A DNA stretch of 64,000 nt from Escherichia coli (lineage in GTDB: Bacteria; Pseudomonadota; Gammaproteobacteria; Enterobacterales; Enterobacteriaceae). A model generated the notes under the pieces. The model searched no databases. It was not told the origin of the DNA and was given only the letters and a program-made list of their open reading frames with translations. Of the stretch, positions 8,765-44,793 are shown piece by piece (positions within the stretch are counted from its first letter, which is position 1; each line of letters opens with the position of its first letter). A program made the position numbers and the translations under genes. The DNA is taken from assembly GCF_003790525.1 (NCBI RefSeq), contig NZ_CP033635.1. One strand, 5' to 3'.

Positions 8765-9667
8765 TTATGAAAGCATAGACCGTTTACCCTCCCTGGGTAC
8801 GACGGAACAGGGGTCCTGATGGATAATCACATCCGATCCCGGAAAACGCCGTAAAATAGCCTGCTCTACCTGATCCGCCACCATATGTGCCTGAACCAAA
8901 GGCAGAGAGTCTTCCATTTCCAAATGAATCTGAATAAAGCGGGTCGGCCCTGACTGCCGCGTGCGAAGATCGTGAGCGCCGCTAACACCCGGCCAGGAAG
9001 TCACGATATCAATAATTTCTTGCCGTTCTTCATCAGGCAATGCGCGATCCAGTAATGACTGTACCGCCTCATATCCCATGCGTAACGCGCTATATAAAAT
9101 ATAGATGCCGATTCCCAATGCAAACAGAGCATCGGCGCGATGCCAGCCGTACCAGGACAACCCCAGCGCCAGCAGAATTGCGCCGTTCATCATAACATCA
9201 GACTGGTAATGTAGCATATCAGCCCGCACCGCCTGGCTTTGCGTCCGGCGCACCACCCACCGCTGAAACGAGACAAGGATAATCGTACAAATTAGCGCCA
9301 CAATTGTCACGATAACCCCGACGCCTGGATCTGTCATCGGTGTTGGAGATACCAGATGTTGAATACCCGTCAAAAACAGGAATAGTGCCGAACCGGAGAT
9401 AAACATACTTTGCGCCAGCGCCGCGAGGGACTCAGCTTTACCGTGACCAAACGAGTGATTATCGTCGGCAGGTTGCAGGGAATATCGCACCACCAGTAAA
9501 TTCGTCAACGACGCGCCGATATCCACCAGCGAATCCACCAGCGCGGCGAGAATACTCACCGACCCGGTATACCACCATGCAAAAATTTTAATCAGCAATA
9601 GCAGCGAAGCCATCGCCGTCGCAGCAATCGCCGCCCGACTGACCAGCCGTCCATAAGATTGATTCAT
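8765..9667 (-). CDS. fieF: Cation-efflux (Fe/Zn) transporter, CDF family
   Basis: 300 aa from [32 protein letters not shown]...; CDF membrane domain plus C-terminal cytoplasmic domain. Confidence 0.9.
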
Positions 9668-9745
9668 AAATACTCCCGCTATCAACTGACGGTAGTATAA
9701 CGGAAGCAAATCATCTGCAATGCATTAAGCAGCAAGCAAATTGAG

Positions 9746-9792
9746 GATAAAAAAAACCCCCACATCATGTGGGGGAAGACAGGGATGGTGTC
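9746..9792. repeat. attL core (prophage-left copy of the cpxP-terminator repeat)
   Basis: gataaaaaaaacccccacatcatgtgggggaagacagggatggtgtc, identical over 47 bp to 44747..44793. Confidence 0.85.
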
Positions 9793-9860: not shown

Positions 9861-9891
9861 CGACCATAAATAAAGCCCCTCAACTGAGGGG

Positions 9892-11317
9892 TAATGCCGA
9901 TCAGTTAAGGATCAGTTGACCGATCCAGTGGCTGTGTAAGAATCCGGAAACGCTCACTTGTTTCCGGATTTTTTTATGCACATTGGACAGGCTCTTGATC
10001 TGGTATCCCGTTACGATTCTCTGCGTAACCCACTGACTTCTCTGGGGGATTACCTCGACCCCGAACTCATCTCTCGTTGCCTTGCCGAATCAGGTACTGT
10101 AACGCTACGCAAGCGCCGTCTTCCCCTCGAAATGATGGTCTGGTGTATTGTTGGCATGGCGCTTGAGCGTAAAGAACCTCTTCACCAGATTGTGAATCGC
10201 CTGGACATCATGCTGCCGGGCAATCGCCCCTTCGTTGCCCCCAGTGCCGTTATTCAGGCCCGCCAGCGCCTGGGAAGTGAGGCTGTCCGCCGCGTGTTCA
10301 CGAAAACAGCGCAGCTCTGGCATAACGCCACGCCGCATCCGCACTGGTGCGGCCTGACCCTGCTGGCCATCGATGGTGTGTTCTGGCGCACACCGGATAC
10401 ACCAGAGAACGATGCAGCCTTCCCCCGCCAGACACATGCCGGGAACCCGGCGCTCTACCCGCAGGTCAAAATGGTCTGCCAGATGGAACTGACCAGCCAT
10501 CTGCTGACGGCTGCAGCCTTCGGCACGATGAAGAACAGCGAAAATGAGCTTGCTGAGCAACTTATAGAACAAACCGGCGATAACACTCTGACGTTAATGG
10601 ATAAAGGTTATTACTCACTGGGACTGTTAAATGCCTGGAGCCTGGCGGGAGAACACCGCCACTGGATGATACCTCTCAGAAAGGGAGCGCAATATGAAGA
10701 GATCAGAAAACTGGGTAAAGGCGATCATCTGGTGAAGCTGAAAACCAGCCCGCAGGCACGAAAAAAGTGGCCGGGACTGGGAAATGAAGTGACAGCCCGC
10801 CTGCTGACCGTGACGCGCAAAGGAAAAGTCTGCCATCTGCTGACGTCGATGACGGACGCCATGCGCTTCCCCGGAGGAGAAATGGCGGATCTGTACAGTC
10901 ATCGCTGGGAAATCGAACTGGGATACAGGGAGATAAAACAGACGATGCAACTGAGCAGGCTGACGCTGAGAAGTAAAAAACCGGAGCTTGTGGAGCAAGA
11001 GCTGTGGGGTGTCTTACTGGCTTATAATCTGGTGAGATATCAGATGATTAAAATGGCGGAATATCTGAAAGGTTACTGGCCGAATCAACTGAGTTTCTCA
11101 GAATCATGTGGAATGGTGATGAGAATGCTGATGACATTGCAGGGCGCTTCACCGGGACGTATACCGGAGCTGATGCGCGATCTTGCAAGTATGGGACAAC
11201 TTGTGAAATTACCGACAAGAAGGGAAAGGGCCTTCCCGAGAGTGGTAAAGGAGAGGCCCTGGAAATACCCCACAGCCCCGAAAAAGAGCCAGTCAGTTGC
11301 TTAACTGACTGGCATTA
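9892..11317 (+). mobile_element. IS4 insertion sequence (1426 bp)
   Basis: Terminal inverted repeats taatgccgatcagttaagg / ccttaactgactggcatta (imperfect); flanked by a 13-bp direct duplication ctcaactgagggg at 9879..9891 and 11318..11330; single transposase ORF. Confidence 0.9.
9976..11304 (+). CDS. insG: IS4 transposase (DDE family)
   Basis: 442 aa from ATG 9976 ([40 protein letters not shown]...); ORF-track start at 9958 is a TTG extension. Confidence 0.9.
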
Positions 11318-11342
11318 CTCAACTGAGGGGCTATTTTTGTGA

Positions 11343-24439: not shown

Positions 24440-25225
24440 ATGTTCAGTGATAATGTGACTAATGCGTGGTGGTTTATCTCTTTGTATCTATTTTTATTAA
24501 TAGCATTAACATTTGTTACCTTTGGTAAAAGTAATCTTATGAGGTTTATTGCACATCATTTCAATCTTGAGTATTCAGACAGAAAGTTAAAAATGCTCGA
24601 CAAAAAATGGCGCGACATTCAACTATTTAAAATAATTAACGGAATCAATGTATCAGGCATCGAAGATGTGAGAATGATACAGCAGGGGCTGATTGATGGA
24701 AAACTAAAAACATCGTATTTTTTCCTTACTCGCTTCTGGGGTGACATAACAAAACCACCACACATAATTAAAACAACAATTGTAATTCTGGCCAGTATTA
24801 TTTATATTCTCTTCGCATGTTATATACACAATGAACAATCCGCTATAGTAAGGGATGCCATAGGTATACCATATAAAAATATGATGTACTATGTTTATAG
24901 TGACAAAGTTCTTTTATCCTTCAAAAATAAAACGGTTGAATTTAATAAAACTTATAGCCTTGCCGATTGCAAGAGTCTGCAAAACGTATTTATAAAAGAC
25001 ACACTTCCCGAGATCGCCTGCAATAAGCTCTTACAGCTAAACAAGGAGGACTCCGAATGGTTAAGTCAGGAGATTAAAGATAATAACAGCCACAGAAAAA
25101 CATTATTAATAATATCCCTAACCTATTTCATTTCAGGTCTGCTTATATTCCTGTCATATACAAAATTCCTTTACGCCAATAAGAAGGTTTTAGAATACAA
25201 AGCATCAAATAAAAACCACTCATAA
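24440..25225 (+). CDS. Hypothetical membrane protein at the orf30 position, opposite strand to the tail genes
   Basis: 261 aa, very AT-rich, about three predicted TM helices (WWFISLYLFLLIALTFVTF; TIVILASIIYILFACYI; LLIISLTYFISGLLIFLSY). Confidence 0.6.
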   Translation: MFSDNVTNAWWFISLYLFLLIALTFVTFGKSNLMRFIAHHFNLEYSDRKLKMLDKKWRDIQLFKIINGINVSGIEDVRMIQQGLIDGKLKTSYFFLTRFWGDITKPPHIIKTTIVILASIIYILFACYIHNEQSAIVRDAIGIPYKNMMYYVYSDKVLLSFKNKTVEFNKTYSLADCKSLQNVFIKDTLPEIACNKLLQLNKEDSEWLSQEIKDNNSHRKTLLIISLTYFISGLLIFLSYTKFLYANKKVLEYKASNKNHS

Positions 25226-25296
25226 ACCTCTAAATATTGAGCGACCAGCACGGCCGCTCAATGCTTAATTGCGCATCAGCCTCTGCCTTGATAAAA

Positions 25297-25749
25297 CTAA
25301 CGCTCAAGGTGAGCCAGGATAATCTCTTCAATCATCTGCACATCCTCACCGGTAAAGCCGAGCAGAGGACGCGCCGGATAATCAATTTTCTTACCGTCTT
25401 TCCGGTTTTCTTCCGACAGACCGAACTGATGCACACTGGCGATTTTCGGTGACTTCCCGCCGTAAAACTCCATTGATGCCTGTTCCGGGCTGGCGCGGAT
25501 ATGCAAAAAACGACTGGTGATAAGTTTCGCAAACATTTTTCGCTTAACACGACCGGTCTTTTTTCTGGCGCTCTGCTGCTGGCGTGGCGCGTAGGGTGTG
25601 CCGTCCGGAGCTTTCTGTGCCATCACCCGACGCTGCTGACTCTGCCGCAGGCGTTTCGCCAGTTCGGCACTCAGTCGCCGACGCCCTGACGGTGACAGCG
25701 ATTCAATCAGTCCGGTCAGCCGGTCTTCAAAACGCTTAAACTCATTCAT
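25297..25749 (-). CDS. S: Tail completion protein S
   Basis: 150 aa, P2 gpS length and position. Confidence 0.85.
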   Translation of the reverse strand: MNEFKRFEDRLTGLIESLSPSGRRRLSAELAKRLRQSQQRRVMAQKAPDGTPYAPRQQQSARKKTGRVKRKMFAKLITSRFLHIRASPEQASMEFYGGKSPKIASVHQFGLSEENRKDGKKIDYPARPLLGFTGEDVQMIEEIILAHLER

Positions 25750-26209
25750 CCCACTTGCTCACCAGTTCGCCATTGATATACAGCTCCATCGGGCGGGTGA
25801 CCGGCTCCGGCGGCGGAGGTTCCGGGATATTCTTCACATGCAGCGCGCCGTCCACCTCACTGACCAGCGTGCGCTCGGTCAGCATCAGGCTGATACTGAT
25901 ATCAAAGCTGCTGTCATTGTTGATGTCCGCATAAAACGTGAAGCCCTTTTTCTGGCCTGCGTCGGTGGTCATGATGTCGGGCTGATTTTCCCGCAGCCAC
26001 GCCAGCACCGGCACGATGAGCAGGTCAAAATCACCGGTAAAGTCGGTCACAATGACATTGAGCGTGTAACGCTTTTCAAATGACAGCGACCTCGCCAGTG
26101 TGGAGGCAATACTCCCGTTATCCACGAATATCCGCAGCATCTCGGGACTGGTTTTCAGCACCGTGACAGCATCAGTCAGCGCCCTGCGCAGGCTGTCGGG
26201 TTTGAGCAT
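25742..26209 (-). CDS. R: Tail completion protein R
   Basis: 155 aa, P2 gpR length and position. Confidence 0.85.
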   Translation of the reverse strand: MLKPDSLRRALTDAVTVLKTSPEMLRIFVDNGSIASTLARSLSFEKRYTLNVIVTDFTGDFDLLIVPVLAWLRENQPDIMTTDAGQKKGFTFYADINNDSSFDISISLMLTERTLVSEVDGALHVKNIPEPPPPEPVTRPMELYINGELVSKWDE

Positions 26210-26462
26210 CGTTTTCGTCCTGACAGTGTTTAATCATTTTTACCTGGCTGGCACAGCGTGCCAGCGCGTTCTCAAGCTGCCGGATATCAGCACTTAAATC
26301 GCCGTTCGTCTCCGGGTCACTGCCCGGCATCGGGCAAAGGCTCACTTTCGGGCAGGCGTTGTGGACAATCACTGGCGTCGGCGCAGGCCGGGCGCTGGTG
26401 CAACCGGCGCACAGCATCAGGCAGGTCAGCGCCGTACCAGCGGCGAAAATCTTCGTTTTCAT
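26172..26462 (-). CDS. lysC: LysC, Rz1-like outer-membrane lipoprotein spanin, nested out of frame in lysB
   Basis: 96 aa from MKTKIFAAGTALTCLMLCAGCTSARPAPTP...; lipobox LCAGC; embedded in the lysB 3' region. Confidence 0.7.
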   Translation of the reverse strand: MKTKIFAAGTALTCLMLCAGCTSARPAPTPVIVHNACPKVSLCPMPGSDPETNGDLSADIRQLENALARCASQVKMIKHCQDENDAQTRQPAQGAD

Positions 26463-26742
26463 TAAGTAACCTCGTGATGGTTTTCTCGCGCTGTGCTTCA
26501 CGCTTCGCGGCGTTCTCCAGCTCCTGACGCAGTGCCACCTGCGCCAGCTCGTTTTTGTCTGCCCTGGTAAGGGCAACATGAAGCTGATTTTTCAGCATGG
26601 TGATGGTCGTCTGCTGTTCACTGGCGACGTTGTTCGCCCTGTCCAGCGAGGCGCGCAGGCTGGCATTTTTGTGTTTCACCAGAAACAGACCGGCCACCGC
26701 CAGTGATAACAACACGACCAGCACAATCATCAGCTTTGACAT
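26317..26742 (-). CDS. lysB: LysB, Rz-like inner-membrane spanin
   Basis: 141 aa, N-terminal TM helix then coiled-coil periplasmic domain. Confidence 0.8.
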   Translation of the reverse strand: MSKLMIVLVVLLSLAVAGLFLVKHKNASLRASLDRANNVASEQQTTITMLKNQLHVALTRADKNELAQVALRQELENAAKREAQREKTITRLLNENEDFRRWYGADLPDAVRRLHQRPACADASDCPQRLPESEPLPDAGQ

Positions 26743-27155
26743 GGTTCCCGCCCCTCAAAACGCTGACAGCAGGCCGTACGTATCAGCCGGAAGAACACCG
26801 ATGCCACGAGATAAATCAGCGCGGTAAAAATCCACCCGGCAGCGACCAGCGAGATAAACGTCGCCACCATCACTACCAGAGCCACTGACCGCCTGCGCCA
26901 CGGCACCGGCTGCAAAAACAGCGCCGTGACAATCTTCACGGCCAGCGATTCCGGCGGCAGCTCCCGCCCGTAGCGTTCCAGTACATACTCAGTGGCATAC
27001 ACGCCGACACCACCGGCAACCACACAGATAACCGTCGCCAGAATCGCCCAGGCGGCGACAAAACTGACGGCCACGCTCTGCGGGTAAATCAGGGACAGTG
27101 CCAGCATCAGCGCCAGCGACACGTTCAGCATCAGTGAAAGGGATAATTTCTTCAT
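26730..27155 (-). CDS. lysA: LysA, membrane protein of the lysis cassette
   Basis: 141 aa with four hydrophobic segments; P2 LysA length. Confidence 0.8.
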   Translation of the reverse strand: MKKLSLSLMLNVSLALMLALSLIYPQSVAVSFVAAWAILATVICVVAGGVGVYATEYVLERYGRELPPESLAVKIVTALFLQPVPWRRRSVALVVMVATFISLVAAGWIFTALIYLVASVFFRLIRTACCQRFEGREPCQS

Positions 27156-27169
27156 GGTGTTTACTCCGT

Positions 27170-27667
27170 TTAAGCCAGTACGCCGCCAGCGGTACGCCAG
27201 ACGGTGAACAGTTTTTCCAGTGAATGCTCACGCTGACCGTAACCGGCACCCGGCAGGGACGCCCAGATATTGCGACAGCGTGAAATGGCGCGCTCAATGC
27301 GTCCCGCCCGGATGTCATCCAGTGCACCGCGTTCGCGGATCAACTGAATGGCGAGTCTGTCCTGTGACAACGGACTGAAATCAGGCAGGGCAAGCTGTTT
27401 GCGGTAGTGCGGCCAGAACAGGTAAAGCTGCTGATAGCGACCGGAGGCCGTGGATTTTTCACCGCGACGGTTAAACACCTTCGCCGGTCGGCCATGCGCG
27501 AACGGGTGGTCACTGTAGTCGGTGAAAATTTCCGGCTTCCCGTCCAGTCCGGTGACTATCACGTCATAGCCCCGGTTTTTCGTCAGCGGATGATTCGCCG
27601 TCCCTTCGGACACGGCCAGCATGTCGAGAAAGGCGGCGATATTCTGGTGCGTGTTAATTACCGGCAT
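27170..27667 (-). CDS. K: Endolysin (lysozyme-like)
   Basis: 165 aa, MPVINTHQNIAAFLDMLAVSEGTANHPLTKNRGYDVIVTG...; P2 gpK length. Confidence 0.85.
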   Translation of the reverse strand: MPVINTHQNIAAFLDMLAVSEGTANHPLTKNRGYDVIVTGLDGKPEIFTDYSDHPFAHGRPAKVFNRRGEKSTASGRYQQLYLFWPHYRKQLALPDFSPLSQDRLAIQLIRERGALDDIRAGRIERAISRCRNIWASLPGAGYGQREHSLEKLFTVWRTAGGVLA

Positions 27668-27948
27668 TACGGTTTCCCCCTGCCCTTAAAGCGGCGCTGA
27701 ATGGCAATCTCAATCACCTGATAACCGGCGATACCCAGCATGGAGCCGATGCCGCAAACCGCAGGCAGTGACAGGTCAGGAAACTGCACCAGAACAACAC
27801 CGGCAACCATCGAGACAAAACCACCGAGCAACATGCGCCCGATAAACAGACGCGGGGTGATGGGTTCACCACCGGTAAGCACCTTGCCGACAACAATCAG
27901 CACCCCAATCATGAAAAGCGACAGGACGCTTTTTTCTTCTGCTGTCAT
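27667..27948 (-). CDS. Y: Holin
   Basis: 93 aa with TM helices; P2 gpY length and position. Confidence 0.85.
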   Translation of the reverse strand: MTAEEKSVLSLFMIGVLIVVGKVLTGGEPITPRLFIGRMLLGGFVSMVAGVVLVQFPDLSLPAVCGIGSMLGIAGYQVIEIAIQRRFKGRGKP

Positions 27949-27951
27949 GCG

Positions 27952-28155
27952 TTACTCCCACAGATTGACAGTTTCAGCCACGGGCGCGGTCTGAACGTCG
28001 GGCAGTTCGACGGCGGTGCCATGTGGCAGCACCGCACCCAGTTCAGCCAGTCCCGGATTTGCGACGAGCACGGTCTCAACCACGCCCTCAGTGCGCCCGT
28101 AATACCGGACACAAATGGCGTCGAGCGTGTCGCCCTGTAGCGCAAAGGTCTTCAT
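27952..28155 (-). CDS. X: Tail protein X
   Basis: 67 aa from MKTFALQGDTLDAICVRYYGRTEGVVETVL...; P2 gpX length. Confidence 0.85.
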   Translation of the reverse strand: MKTFALQGDTLDAICVRYYGRTEGVVETVLVANPGLAELGAVLPHGTAVELPDVQTAPVAETVNLWE

Positions 28156-28664
28156 CAGATTTGACTCACGATGCAGCGCGGCTTGTCCTGGATACGCGCC
28201 ACCGCCCAGCGCATATCCCGCCACAGTTCATCAATGGTGCTGTCAATGCTGTCAGCCTTCTTGTCACCTTTCGCACTGGCATCCACGCCGCGATAACGCT
28301 CATAAAGCGACGCGGTCGCCATCGCACACACGGCGCGCTCGTAGTAAAAAACTTTGATGCTTTCACCGTCGATGTCGTCCGCCGGGACGTCCGCCAGACG
28401 CGTAAAACCGGCGGCAATTTTCTGTTCGCGGTACTCGTACAGCTCCGCATTCGTCTCCGCCATGCCTGACTTGATGGCCTCACGCAGACGGGCGGGGGCG
28501 ACGGTCTGCTCAAGGCGCATACGTTCCCGGACGCGCTTCGGGTCGATATCGGGAAAAAAGAACGTGTTTTTAATCACCGGCTCGTCGCCTGCCGGTTGCG
28601 GGATGACCACCGTACCCTCACCGGACACGGGAGCCTCCTTTCGCGGAATAATCAGCGTCATCAT
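28155..28664 (-). CDS. L: Capsid completion protein L
   Basis: 169 aa from MMTLIIPRKEAPVSGEGTVV...; P2 gpL length. Confidence 0.8.
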   Translation of the reverse strand: MMTLIIPRKEAPVSGEGTVVIPQPAGDEPVIKNTFFFPDIDPKRVRERMRLEQTVAPARLREAIKSGMAETNAELYEYREQKIAAGFTRLADVPADDIDGESIKVFYYERAVCAMATASLYERYRGVDASAKGDKKADSIDSTIDELWRDMRWAVARIQDKPRCIVSQI

Positions 28665-34665: not shown

Positions 34666-34892
34666 CGCCCGCTTCATGGGTCGGTTTTGATGCAATTCCA
34701 AAAGCCGTCCAAACTCTCTTAGGCTAAATGTCCAACGAGAAAATAGTTCTTTGAATGTGAATGCATTTTAATGCAGAGTTATGCCCAGCATTTTTGTACA
34801 CTTCGATGTATCAAATGCGCTGCAAACGATCAAATATGGATGTTTTATCAAGCATCCCCCAAAAGATATTTACATCATCCCATGAGGTTAAG

Positions 34893-35966
34893 ATGGATAA
34901 CAAAATCGTAGAAATTGAGACAAATAAGCTTGATTTTGACCCTAAAAACCCACGTTTCTTTCGTCTCAATGATGCCAGTAACGCTGCAACAGTCATTGAG
35001 GAAATGTTAGATGACGAAAGTGTCCACGATCTAATGCTATCAATCGGTCAGCAAGGTTACTTTCCTGGAGAACCTTTATTGGCAGTAAAAAGCAATGGAA
35101 ACTACATCGTGGTTGAGGGAAACAGACGCTTAGCTGCTGTAAAGTTGCTCAATGGAGATCTGCTTCCTCCAAAAAGAAAACTTAAAGGTGTGCAAGAAAT
35201 CATTGATGATACTACCAATAAACCTAAGAAGCTTCCCTGCATCATTTATGAAAACCGAGAGGATGTACTGAGATATATCGGTTATCGTCATATAACTGGG
35301 GTCAAAGAATGGGACTCATTATCTAAAGCCAAATACCTTAAAGAGTTATGTGATACTTTTTATTCACATGAGCCTAAAGAGATAGTATTAAAAAATCTGG
35401 CTCGTGAGATTGGGAGTAAACCACATTATGTTGCAACACTTCTCACTGCACTGAACTTATATGAAGTCGCGCATGACCATGAGTTTTTTAATTTACCCAT
35501 GAAGGCTTCTGACGTGGAATTTTCATATATAACCACAGCTTTGGGATATTCAAAAATCACAAACTGGTTAGGTCTACAGGATAAAAAGGATTTTTTAGAC
35601 CCAAATTTAAATGAAGAAAACCTTAAGCGTTTATTCTCTTGGTTTTTTGTGCCTGACCAACAAGGTAGAACCATCATCGGTGAGTCTCGAAGAATAAAAG
35701 ATATTGCAGCAGTGGTTGAGAAACCCGAAGCAATTGAAATTCTCATGAAAAGTTCAAACTTGGATGAAGCATATCTATATACCAGCGGAGAAAGAGAAGC
35801 ATTAGATAAAGCACTAAACGCAGCTAGTGTTAAATTAAGAGTAGTTTGGGATATGCTACTTAAAGCTAAAGAATTAACATTAGAGCATGAAGAGGCTGCA
35901 TCTGAAATTTTTGAGATGTCAAAAAATATTAGAAATCAGATCAGAAGCAAAAGGGAGGATGATTGA
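34893..35966 (+). CDS. ParB/Srx-like N-terminal domain protein (cargo gene 1 at the old/tin position)
   Basis: 357 aa from ATG 34893 (RBS gagg upstream); ParB-box-like motifs LDFDPKNPRF and IVVEGNRRLAAVKLL; AT-rich. Confidence 0.7.
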   Translation: MDNKIVEIETNKLDFDPKNPRFFRLNDASNAATVIEEMLDDESVHDLMLSIGQQGYFPGEPLLAVKSNGNYIVVEGNRRLAAVKLLNGDLLPPKRKLKGVQEIIDDTTNKPKKLPCIIYENREDVLRYIGYRHITGVKEWDSLSKAKYLKELCDTFYSHEPKEIVLKNLAREIGSKPHYVATLLTALNLYEVAHDHEFFNLPMKASDVEFSYITTALGYSKITNWLGLQDKKDFLDPNLNEENLKRLFSWFFVPDQQGRTIIGESRRIKDIAAVVEKPEAIEILMKSSNLDEAYLYTSGEREALDKALNAASVKLRVVWDMLLKAKELTLEHEEAASEIFEMSKNIRNQIRSKREDD

Positions 35967-35970
35967 GATT

Positions 35971-36996
35971 ATGATTACAAATCTTGATTCAATGCCTTCT
36001 AATGAGCCTTATTTATGGGCTGATTATATTGAGATATTGGCCTTAACTAATATCGACAGGTCATTCAGTCGAGGAGACCTATATAGCACACTGCAAGCTC
36101 AACCCGAAGCAGTACTAGCTGAAACAGATGAAGCAGAAGAAGAGGGCGTTTATGATGTTGATGATGAAAATGATACGCCTGTACGCAAGAGAACAAAACG
36201 AAGTGTTAGTCGAGCATATACTGACAGAAAGTGGAGCTATGCGATAGGCTTCATACGACAACGCATTGATTTATTTGGGGATAGTTACCCTTTTACTTTA
36301 TCAGAAGACAACGATACTGTAGAGTTACGTGATATATCAGAAAAGCCACTGGAACATTTAGAAAGACTATATTTAGCTTTACTAATCTGTGCTAACATAA
36401 AATATGTCAACATAATGAGCAGAAGAGAGATAACGCGCAGTTTTGAACTAATTAGTTTACCTATTTTTGAAAGCCTAATGCCTAGCGGTAGCATAATAAA
36501 AGCATGCTGGGCTTCTGGTGGTCAAGCGGCCCCTTACACTGGAACTCTATATAATAAATTTAAGAGTATTGCTTCCGATATCCGTTGCACAGCGAACTTC
36601 AAAGAACGAGATTTCAGTCGAGGAAATAGTGGTGACGGAGGCCTTGACATAATTGCCTGGCATCCAATGGGAGATCAACGAGATGCCATCCCTATTTCTT
36701 TTGTTCAGTGTGGCTGTTCTCAAGAAGAGTGGGAAGCGAAGCAGCTTGAGGCCTCACCTGCGATGCTCTACAGTAAATTCCCCGTAGCTCACCGATGGGC
36801 AACTTATTATTTCTTACCTCAAGATCTACGATGGATAGATGGTGAGTGGGCGCATAAAAATAAGTTAGGCGATGCTATTTTTGTTGATCGCCTAAGATTA
36901 ATCAATTTAACCAGAGCATCTGATAATATTGATCACAGTCAAAATATTAGCTATCTAGATATCATCCTTGATCCTTCCAGCGCGATCGCTGCTTAA
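35971..36996 (+). CDS. Hypothetical protein, possible PD-(D/E)xK-type nuclease (cargo gene 2)
   Basis: 341 aa; starts 4 nt after gene 1 (alternative ATG 35959 overlaps its stop); contains GDGGLDIIAW ... ISFVQCGCSQEEWEAK, resembling an Mrr-type catalytic core but lacking the canonical QCK lysine. Confidence 0.6.
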   Translation: MITNLDSMPSNEPYLWADYIEILALTNIDRSFSRGDLYSTLQAQPEAVLAETDEAEEEGVYDVDDENDTPVRKRTKRSVSRAYTDRKWSYAIGFIRQRIDLFGDSYPFTLSEDNDTVELRDISEKPLEHLERLYLALLICANIKYVNIMSRREITRSFELISLPIFESLMPSGSIIKACWASGGQAAPYTGTLYNKFKSIASDIRCTANFKERDFSRGNSGDGGLDIIAWHPMGDQRDAIPISFVQCGCSQEEWEAKQLEASPAMLYSKFPVAHRWATYYFLPQDLRWIDGEWAHKNKLGDAIFVDRLRLINLTRASDNIDHSQNISYLDIILDPSSAIAA

Positions 36997-37931
36997 TCCC
37001 ATAAATCTGGAAGGTTTCTAGCAACCGCCTCAAACAATGGAGGCGGTACTGCATTACCTACCACAGTATATTTCATATTAATAGAAGCCCGTTCAGTTTC
37101 TGGGAAAATTAAATCCCCAAAACCTTGTAAAATAGCAGCCTCTCGATAGCTAAACCTACGAGCTGGTGCATCCGAAGTAAATTGCCACTTATCAGGTCCC
37201 AATTTTTCTAATGTTGGACTTATTGGATGTAGAGGCATATGTCTAGGATTTGCAACAATTGTTTTAGATATCTGATCCCAATCTTGCCTACGGTTTCGCG
37301 ATAGATAATACCAATGAAAATCGGCGTCATAAAACTCGCCAACAGGCCAAACAGGCATATGCCCAATAGCATCACGAATTGTGGAATATGGTGTCAAACC
37401 ATCACCATGTGTTGGTTTTGGAAATTTGTATGTAATACCGTAGTCCTTTCGTATTCCTACGATAAAGATTCGCTTCCTATCTTGGGATACCCCATAATGG
37501 GACGCATTCAGAATTTGCGAGCTTACTGTATAACCTGCTTCTTCGAAAACTTTGAATTGATCCTTTAATAAATGCTCAAAGTTACGCCTTACCATACCAG
37601 AGACATTCTCTACAATGAATGCTTTTGGCTTAATTTTACTCAAAGCACGGGCAAACTCTAAATATAGTGTATTAATCTTTCTATCTGCCTTCCTTGCCCC
37701 ACCTTGACTAAATCCTTGGCAAGGATAGCATCCGATGAGCAACTCAGCAGAAGGGAACGACTGGAGCCCTGAGATATCGCCCAAAATGTAGTCAGTTTCA
37801 GGATGGTTTTCTAAGTAAACGTCCCTTGCGTAAGGCAAAATATCATTTGCCATAAGCACATTGAAACCTGCGTTCAAAACTCCCGCATCAGAACCACCAC
37901 ATCCAGAAAAAAGTGAAACTACAGTTGGCAT
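36993..37931 (-). CDS. DNA cytosine-5 methyltransferase, HaeIII/HhaI-type small m5C MTase (cargo gene 3)
   Basis: 312 aa with motif I FSGCGG, motif IV PCQGFS, motif VI ENV, motif VIII QDRKR, motif X GNAVPPPL, plus YYLSRNRRQDW resembling the M.HaeIII variable region; convergent with gene 2 (4-bp overlap). Confidence 0.85.
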   Translation of the reverse strand: MPTVVSLFSGCGGSDAGVLNAGFNVLMANDILPYARDVYLENHPETDYILGDISGLQSFPSAELLIGCYPCQGFSQGGARKADRKINTLYLEFARALSKIKPKAFIVENVSGMVRRNFEHLLKDQFKVFEEAGYTVSSQILNASHYGVSQDRKRIFIVGIRKDYGITYKFPKPTHGDGLTPYSTIRDAIGHMPVWPVGEFYDADFHWYYLSRNRRQDWDQISKTIVANPRHMPLHPISPTLEKLGPDKWQFTSDAPARRFSYREAAILQGFGDLIFPETERASINMKYTVVGNAVPPPLFEAVARNLPDLWD

Positions 37932-44746: not shown

Positions 44747-44793
44747 GATAAAAAAAACCCCCACATCATGTGGGGGAAGACAGGGATGGTGTC
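44747..44793. repeat. attR core, identical to attL; carries the cpxP/CpxQ terminator hairpin
   Basis: 47-bp identity with 9746..9792; contains cccccacat-c-atgtggggg next to an A/T run. Confidence 0.85.

Follow-up and report, generated by a model that had tools for sequence, protein, structure and literature searches.

Genes of the Lysis Region

The window, i.e., the whole 64,000-nucleotide stretch of Escherichia coli DNA that was analyzed, contains five contiguous genes on the minus strand in the order Y, K, lysA, lysB, and lysC, which form a lysis cassette with holin and endolysin and are followed by the genes R and S (Table 1). The K product matches two structures of lambda lysozyme, 1AM7 and 3D3D (E 7e-44). 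The product of lysA, the 3′ end of which overlaps the start of lysB by 13 nt, is assigned to the NF038378 DNZ54_00345 family (120 bits) and to phrog_162, and several hydrophobic segments are apparent in its hydropathy scan; for P2, LysA is reported to be the antiholin and to possess four TMDs (PMC3091744). When positions 25000-28600 were scanned, the cassette itself yielded no promoter-like site, and the terminator-like matches in the same interval are within the expectation from shuffled sequences. A sequence-only reading of this DNA had previously recognized a full lysis module, and Y, K, and lysA are indeed found directly upstream of lysB and lysC. Furthermore, the interval 26172-26742, to which that reading had assigned the spanin genes, is the exact union of lysB and lysC, and internal stops, which it had named as refuting evidence, were absent from both ORFs on re-inspection.

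Table 1. Positions in the window of the lysis genes, their internal features, and the adjoining tail genes.
Feature	Positions	Strand	Description
Y, holin	27667-27948	minus	93 aa; PF04550 Phage_holin_3_2 (E 7e-42); phrog_175 holin
K, endolysin (lambda R-type)	27170-27667	minus	165 aa; phrog_90 endolysin (E 3.8e-70)
lysA, multi-pass membrane protein, proposed antiholin	26730-27155	minus	141 aa
lysB, i-spanin	26317-26742	minus	141 aa; 426 nt; ATG to TGA; no internal stops
Coding region of the LysB transmembrane anchor	26677-26733	minus	residues ~4-22, LMIVLVVLLSLAVAGLFLV
+1-frame ORF containing lysC	26172-26579	minus	135 aa from first ATG; no internal stops
lysC Shine-Dalgarno sequence GAGG	26470-26473	minus	7 nt 5′ of the ATG (26462), within lysB
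lysC, o-spanin	26172-26462	minus	96-aa precursor; predicted 76-aa mature lipoprotein; +1 frame relative to lysB
LysC signal peptide and Cys21 codon	26400-26462	minus	residues 1-20, MKTKIFAAGTALTCLMLCAG; codon of predicted lipidated Cys21, 26400-26402
lysB/lysC dual-coding overlap	26317-26462	minus	146 nt; lysB codons 94-141 and stop; lysC codons 1-48
Overlap of lysC 3′ end with start of R	26172-26209	minus	38 nt
R, tail completion gene	25742-26209	minus	155 aa; PF06891 (E 9.8e-45)
S	25297-25749	minus	150 aa

Families and Predicted Structures of LysB and LysC

LysB is assigned to the TIGR03495 phage_LysB equivalog at 172.5 bits (curated cut-off, 92.75) and to the Rz-like spanin family phrog_89 (E 8.8e-61); a Pfam scan at E ≤ 0.01 returned solely a sub-threshold match to DUF5937. 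The protein has one hydrophobic segment, located within residues 1-25, with a peak of 3.12 in a 19-residue Kyte-Doolittle window. In an AF2 model built from a small alignment (mean pLDDT 81.5), LysB is predicted to form a continuous helix from residue 3 to residue 95, comprising the TMD and a long periplasmic helix, followed by short helices and a low-confidence tail.

LysC is assigned to the NF038368 P2_Rz1 equivalog at 127.4 bits (cut-off, 27; E 1.7e-37), and its residues 4-88 span the entire 85-position profile. Matches were also obtained to PF23793 LysC, at 62.4 bits against a cut-off of 27, and to a PHROG 'Rz-like spanin' family. The TIGR03495, NF038368, and PHROG matches uphold the previous designation of the pair as i-spanin and o-spanin. 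A tblastn search with LysC retrieved 273 phage records, 254 of which cover at least 80% of the query. An alignment of nine divergent homologues, from phages of Escherichia, Salmonella, Klebsiella, Burkholderia, and Haemophilus, shows that G9, L15, and Cys21 are invariant, as are the periplasmic cysteines C37, C43, C70, and C80. Mature LysC would carry four cysteines besides the predicted lipid-bearing one, and 10.5% of its predicted 76 residues are proline. In the AF2 model, again from a small alignment, the N-terminal half is proline-rich and non-helical, and a helix is predicted for residues 53-88 at pLDDT >90, in agreement with the published description of P2 LysC (PMC3556154). A sequence search identified no relatives of LysB or LysC with solved structures.

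The +1 ORF might have been considered a frame that is open by chance and yields no product, with lysB acting alone. When the codons of lysB were shuffled, the +1 frame remained open over the 48-codon overlap in 6% of cases, so the openness of the frame is on its own a weak argument and was not used as evidence for lysC. A chance frame is nevertheless difficult to reconcile with the position of the ORF, approximately half of which extends past lysB and fills a gap of 108 nt that would be non-coding without it, and with the match to a curated family noted above. It is equally at odds with the conservation of the protein, including its invariant cysteines, over proteobacterial P2-like phages, and with an ORF that is intact in 78 of 79 relatives in IMG/VR. 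The probability of a chance frame is regarded as negligible, and lysC, as judged from homology and conserved features rather than from the openness of its frame, is a real gene.

Overlapped Architecture of the Gene Pair

Coordinate arithmetic places the start of lysC at nt 281 of the 426-nt lysB, i.e., 66% along the gene, with a frame offset of +1, and lysC shares only the last 146 nt (34%) of lysB. From the lysB stop codon (26317-26319), lysC continues for a further 145 nt to its own stop codon (26172-26174), which is located inside R. The different reading frame that the sequence-only reading had attributed to lysC is confirmed by these positions, whereas its description of lysC as nested inside lysB, in the last two thirds of that gene, is to be corrected, because lysC overlaps the last third only and continues 145 nt beyond the stop.

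The arrangement conforms to the overlapped class of two-component spanins, in which the +1-frame start of the o-spanin gene is internal to the i-spanin gene and its end lies past the i-spanin stop (PMC3556154). P2 lysB/lysC is the published paradigm of this class (PMC6139136 Fig. 1b, PMC3556154, PMC3091744), and Lynch et al. described the start of P2 lysC as being in the +1 frame within lysB and its stop as being out of frame within R (PMC3091744). P2 and WPhi are both entered in SpaninDB as 'ovl', and for WPhi the shared length is given as 146 nt, a fraction of 0.343 of its i-spanin gene. The geometry in Wphi and PSP3 is identical to that in the window, with 146 nt shared and 145 nt beyond, and the lysB and lysC genes of Burkholderia phages share 155-164 nt. 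The overlapped arrangement was found in the curated records of Wphi, PSP3, Momento, ST79, and KS14, and the pair is annotated as i-spanin/o-spanin in the Momento record. Furthermore, E. coli SMS-3-5 carries an identical gene, to which PGAP attached the remark 'substantially overlapping although not fully embedded'.

In the embedded class, typified by lambda Rz/Rz1, the gene for the outer-membrane component lies wholly within that for the inner-membrane component. Such an arrangement would resemble the present locus in that the start of lysC, like that of Rz1, is internal to the i-spanin gene and in the +1 frame; however, the position of the lysC stop past that of lysB, within R, already refutes it. 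Moreover, no Pfam match to lambda Rz or Rz1 was obtained at E ≤ 0.01, all curated relatives examined show the overlapped geometry, and it is on exactly this point that the literature sets P2 against lambda. An embedded pair is accordingly given practically no probability, and lysB/lysC in the window belongs to the overlapped class rather than to the lambda-type embedded class. The region provides a clean example for keeping the two architectures apart.

The overlap imposes dual coding on 146 nt. Briefly, the first codons of lysC, ATG AAA ACG AAG (MKTK), use the same bases that encode L-N-E-N-E in LysB, and these residues form part of ENExxRxW...LPxxVxRL, where the conservation of LysB is highest. 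In a set of 61 distinct Peduovirus sequences, the variability at third positions of lysB is 0.25 in the overlap and 0.40 outside it; the lower value is only a trend and is not significant (Fisher p = 0.09), the sequences being too similar to decide.

Start Codon of lysC

Public records disagree on the start of lysC, giving a product of 52, 81, or 96 aa, and the value of the present analysis lies in this point of annotation. In NC_070904.1 and PV340563.1, lysC is annotated as a 159-nt gene encoding 52 aa and starting with MPGSDPE (Met45), and in NC_010498.1 (E. coli SMS-3-5, PGAP) as a 246-nt gene encoding 81 aa from Met16. The 96-aa start is used in the records of Wphi, PSP3, and Burkholderia phages and in SpaninDB. 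Translation from the ATG at 26462 yields 96 aa beginning with MKTKIFAAGTALTCLMLCAGCTS, and both the length and the LCAGC motif given for LysC by the sequence-only reading are reproduced by this start.

The GAGG preceding this ATG is kept in 76 of 80 IMG/VR loci, and SpaninDB gives an identical Shine-Dalgarno sequence for the P2-family o-spanin. Most of the tblastn alignments among the 254 records begin at residue 1, out to phages of Burkholderia and Pseudomonas. The 96-aa start is therefore the one supported by the sequence features, namely the GAGG, the conserved signal-peptide residues, the invariant cysteines, and the alignments from residue 1.

If one of the shorter starts were correct, LysC would be a short soluble protein of 52 or 81 aa without a signal peptide, i.e., a cytoplasmic 'lysis regulatory protein'. 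The 159-nt and 246-nt annotations are in line with such a protein, as is the Pfam LysC model, which begins at residue 16. Neither Met16 nor Met45, however, is preceded by a Shine-Dalgarno sequence, as opposed to the GAGG at -7 of Met1. Residues 1-44, including G9, L15, C21, C37, and C43, are conserved in distant homologues, and the NF038368 match, which extends from residue 4, as well as the starting point of most alignments with at least 80% coverage and the 96-aa start in SpaninDB, Wphi, and PSP3 all run counter to a truncated product. A soluble LysC is considered very improbable. Both shorter starts were rejected for lack of a Shine-Dalgarno sequence and loss of the conserved N-terminus; the distinction matters because the 52- and 81-aa forms drop the signal peptide, the feature that makes LysC an outer-membrane lipoprotein.

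A longer form was likewise rejected. The 135-aa product from the first ATG of the frame (26579) has no Shine-Dalgarno sequence; in Wphi, PSP3, KS14, and a Klebsiella phage, an in-frame stop is located just 5′ of Met40, which corresponds to Met1 of lysC; and the 39-codon extension is interrupted by stops in 17 of 80 IMG/VR loci.

Lipoprotein Signal of LysC

The signal peptide predicted from the 96-aa start consists of the n-region MKTK, with a charge of +2, the h-region IFAAGTALTCLML, with a mean hydropathy of 2.05, and the lipobox L-C-A-G preceding C21. Gly is located at -1, Cys at +1, and Thr-Ser (T22-S23) at +2/+3. The sequence LCAGCTS is invariant in all 79 close relatives, and canonical boxes, LSG/C, LCA/C, and LLA/C, are found at the aligned positions in divergent relatives.

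The current consensus is [LVI][ASTVI][GAS]C, and functional deviations from it are documented (PMC6139136). The LysC lipobox fails this strict consensus owing to Cys at -3, and it also fails PROSITE PS51257-like and G+LPP-like patterns for the same reason. LCAG is listed in SpaninDB as the P2-family lipobox. Since the aligned Cys is invariant and relatives possess canonical boxes, Cys at -3 is taken as a caveat and not as a refutation. As regards the lipobox, for which the sequence-only reading had proposed signal peptidase II site prediction as a check, LCAG/C is present and Cys21 is invariant, whereas the residue at -3 falls outside the strict consensus.

According to the Lol avoidance rule, lipoproteins with no Asp at +2 are sorted to the outer membrane. 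With Thr-Ser at +2/+3 and no Asp at +2, LysC would be expected to be sorted to the outer membrane.

Identity and Distribution of the Prophage

The 2.6-kb segment at positions 25700-28300 is 99.8% identical to Peduovirus P2 records, and the whole prophage, at approximately 9746-44793 of the window, aligns to NC_070904.1 at 99.4-99.5%. It is flanked by E. coli chromosomal genes, fieF to the left and cpxP-cpxR-cpxA to the right. Immediately 3′ of ogr, which encodes the activator of the late genes, an IS4 element is present. LysC and its counterpart in the P2 record OU784549.1 share 100% identity, and four residue differences (R3K, G42E, T119A, and M128L) separate LysB from the SpaninDB sequence for NC_001895.

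The two genes are essentially identical to those of P2 and, like them, lie between lysA and R; the +1 frame, the 146-nt overlap, the Shine-Dalgarno sequence, and the LCAG lipobox are likewise common to both. The differences from classical P2 are not substantial and concern the chromosomal location of the present copy, as a prophage inserted between fieF and cpxP, and its non-essential cargo loci. DNA matching positions 26100-26800 was found in 1,608 of 5,426 complete E. coli genomes (~30%); among these matches, the best are 100% identical and most are at least 95% identical, and the matching DNA is annotated as lysB/lysC in the E. coli records listed.

Taken together, the region almost certainly represents the two-component spanin lysB/lysC, in overlapped architecture, from an E. 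coli prophage of bacteriophage P2. All of this is already known, descriptions of the two genes, their arrangement, the lipobox, and the function having been available since 2004-2007, and standard pipelines name the pair.

Proposed Mechanism and Related Spanin Systems

In the proposed scheme, all five lysis genes would be expressed from a late operon, and the operon from Y to lysC is presumably the P2 late O operon. Translation of lysC would start from its own GAGG site inside lysB. LysB would reside in the inner membrane with its N-terminus in and its C-terminus out, and LysC, by analogy with its family and with lambda Rz/Rz1, would be cut by signal peptidase II before Cys21, lipidated, and delivered to the outer membrane by the Lol system. 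Binding between the periplasmic C-terminal portions of the two proteins would then produce a complex that may span the periplasm within the peptidoglycan mesh. Upon triggering of holin Y, endolysin K would strip the peptidoglycan and thereby free the complexes, whose change in shape would bring about fusion or disruption of the two membranes and complete lysis. Markov et al. are said to have reported in 2004, in J Bacteriol 186:4628, that co-expression of lysB and lysC complements lambda Rz/Rz1 nulls. The final steps follow the general spanin model, in which loss of peptidoglycan frees the complexes for membrane fusion or disruption (PMC6139136).

The sequence-only reading had named lysis after induction as a check of the module. 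Prophages of P2 are not known to be SOS-inducible, and defects in spanins show only under certain conditions, namely in high divalent cations; lysis after induction is for these reasons a poor test.

Missense alleles of lysC affecting the first two prolines cause early lysis in cells with compromised peptidoglycan, and, apart from alleles of the holin and antiholin, early-lysis phenotypes are reported solely for alleles of lysC (PMC3556154). It may be hypothesized that P2-type LysC has a role in lysis timing beyond membrane fusion, exerted via functional contact with the holin/antiholin pair or via slow or alternative processing. Altered processing would be due to the unusual yet strictly conserved lipobox, with its Cys at -3, and to C14, a further Cys within the h-region; such a role is nonetheless considered unlikely.

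The pair resembles lambda Rz/Rz1 in that an inner-membrane type II protein with a helical periplasmic domain is combined with a small, proline-rich outer-membrane lipoprotein whose gene is in the +1 frame, and in that the lambda pair acts after holin and endolysin; the same mode of action is expected for LysB/LysC. The systems differ in that Rz1 lies entirely inside Rz whereas lysC extends 145 nt beyond lysB, and in that mature LysC is longer (76 aa), possesses four periplasmic cysteines, and yields no Rz/Rz1 family match in the Pfam scan described above. PseT.3/PseT.2 of T4, a separated pair, and gp11 of T1, a unimolecular spanin, act at the same last stage of Gram-negative lysis and likewise require an outer-membrane lipoprotein signal (PMC6139136). 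Unlike lysB and lysC, the T4 spanin genes do not overlap, and T1 gp11 combines a lipobox and a C-terminal TMD in one polypeptide.

Annotation and Variation of the Lysis Genes

The same lysC gene carries three different starts across public annotations: it is annotated as a 52-aa product in NC_070904.1 (locus L001, 1973-2131) and PV340563.1 (L003, 973-1131), as an 81-aa product initiated at Met16 by PGAP in NC_010498.1 (L091, 1984-2229), and as the 96-aa product in Wphi, PSP3, and SpaninDB. The signal peptide is wholly or mostly lost in the 52-aa and 81-aa calls, and the first position of the Pfam LysC model lies at LysC residue 16, as in the 81-aa call. A further labeling problem concerns LysA, whose family (phrog_162) is designated "endolysin" in PHROGs, a label carried over into RefSeq phage records. 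Because LysA is a multi-pass membrane protein that lacks an enzyme domain, this label appears to be an error that has been propagated between annotations. K is the true endolysin and matched lambda lysozyme structures at an E-value of 7e-44; no Pfam or NCBIfam match to K was found at the thresholds applied.

Among the 79 IMG/VR relatives compared, the TGA stop codon of lysB is replaced by a sense codon in eight (loci L016, L053, L054, L056, L073, L078, L081, and L085), which extends LysB to a length of either 147 or 156 aa and leaves LysC unbroken. In another relative (L041), unrelated sequence occupies the place of the 3′ half of lysC, which may reflect a rearrangement or an assembly artefact close to the contig end.

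Features of the P2 prophage and its surroundings (window positions)
Feature	Position	Strand	Remark
fieF	8765-9709	-	Neighbor of the integrated prophage
Direct repeat, 47 nt, GATAAAAAAAACCCCCACATCATGTGGGGGAAGACAGGGATGGTGTC	9746-9792 and 44747-44793		Bounds the prophage (~35 kb)
Target duplication, 13 bp, CTCAACTGAGGGG	9879-9891 and 11318-11330		Either side of the IS4-family element
IS4-family insertion sequence, 1426 bp	9892-11317
IS4-family transposase ORF	9958-11304	+	PF13006 Nterm_IS4 and PF01609 DDE
ORF, 299 aa	18265-19164	-	GC 0.37; at the variable Z/fun locus of P2, flanked by the tail sheath gene and G
P2 orf30 equivalent, 261 aa	24440-25225	+	GC 0.33; between S and V, opposite strand
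lysC	26172-26462	-	96 aa
lysA	26730-27155	-
K	27170-27667	-	Endolysin
Cargo	34761-37931		GC 0.37-0.41
ORF, 401 aa	within cargo		N-terminal part matches PADLOC PD-Lambda-5_A and PDC-M38A models
ORF, 369 aa	within cargo		No family match found
C5 cytosine DNA methyltransferase	within cargo		Convergent; PF00145; top PADLOC match DruM-like

Variable Loci, Insertion Sequence, and Integration Site

The low-GC cargo occupies the tin/old position of classical P2, the known variable hotspot of this phage, and probably represents a module for anti-phage defence or one resembling restriction-modification. For the 299-aa ORF of the Z/fun locus, matches were found in neither Pfam nor PADLOC. The orf30 equivalent is membrane-protein-like; its sole match is phrog_2407 (function unknown), and PADLOC and NCBIfam yielded none.

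The IS4-family element, with terminal inverted repeats of approximately 19 nt, lies within the prophage between attL and ogr, where it splits the GC-rich hairpin directly downstream of ogr, and is not present in the P2 record NC_070904.1. The prophage itself is inserted between fieF and cpxP/cpxR/cpxA, and its flanks are 100% identical to those of E. coli SMS-3-5 and other strains.
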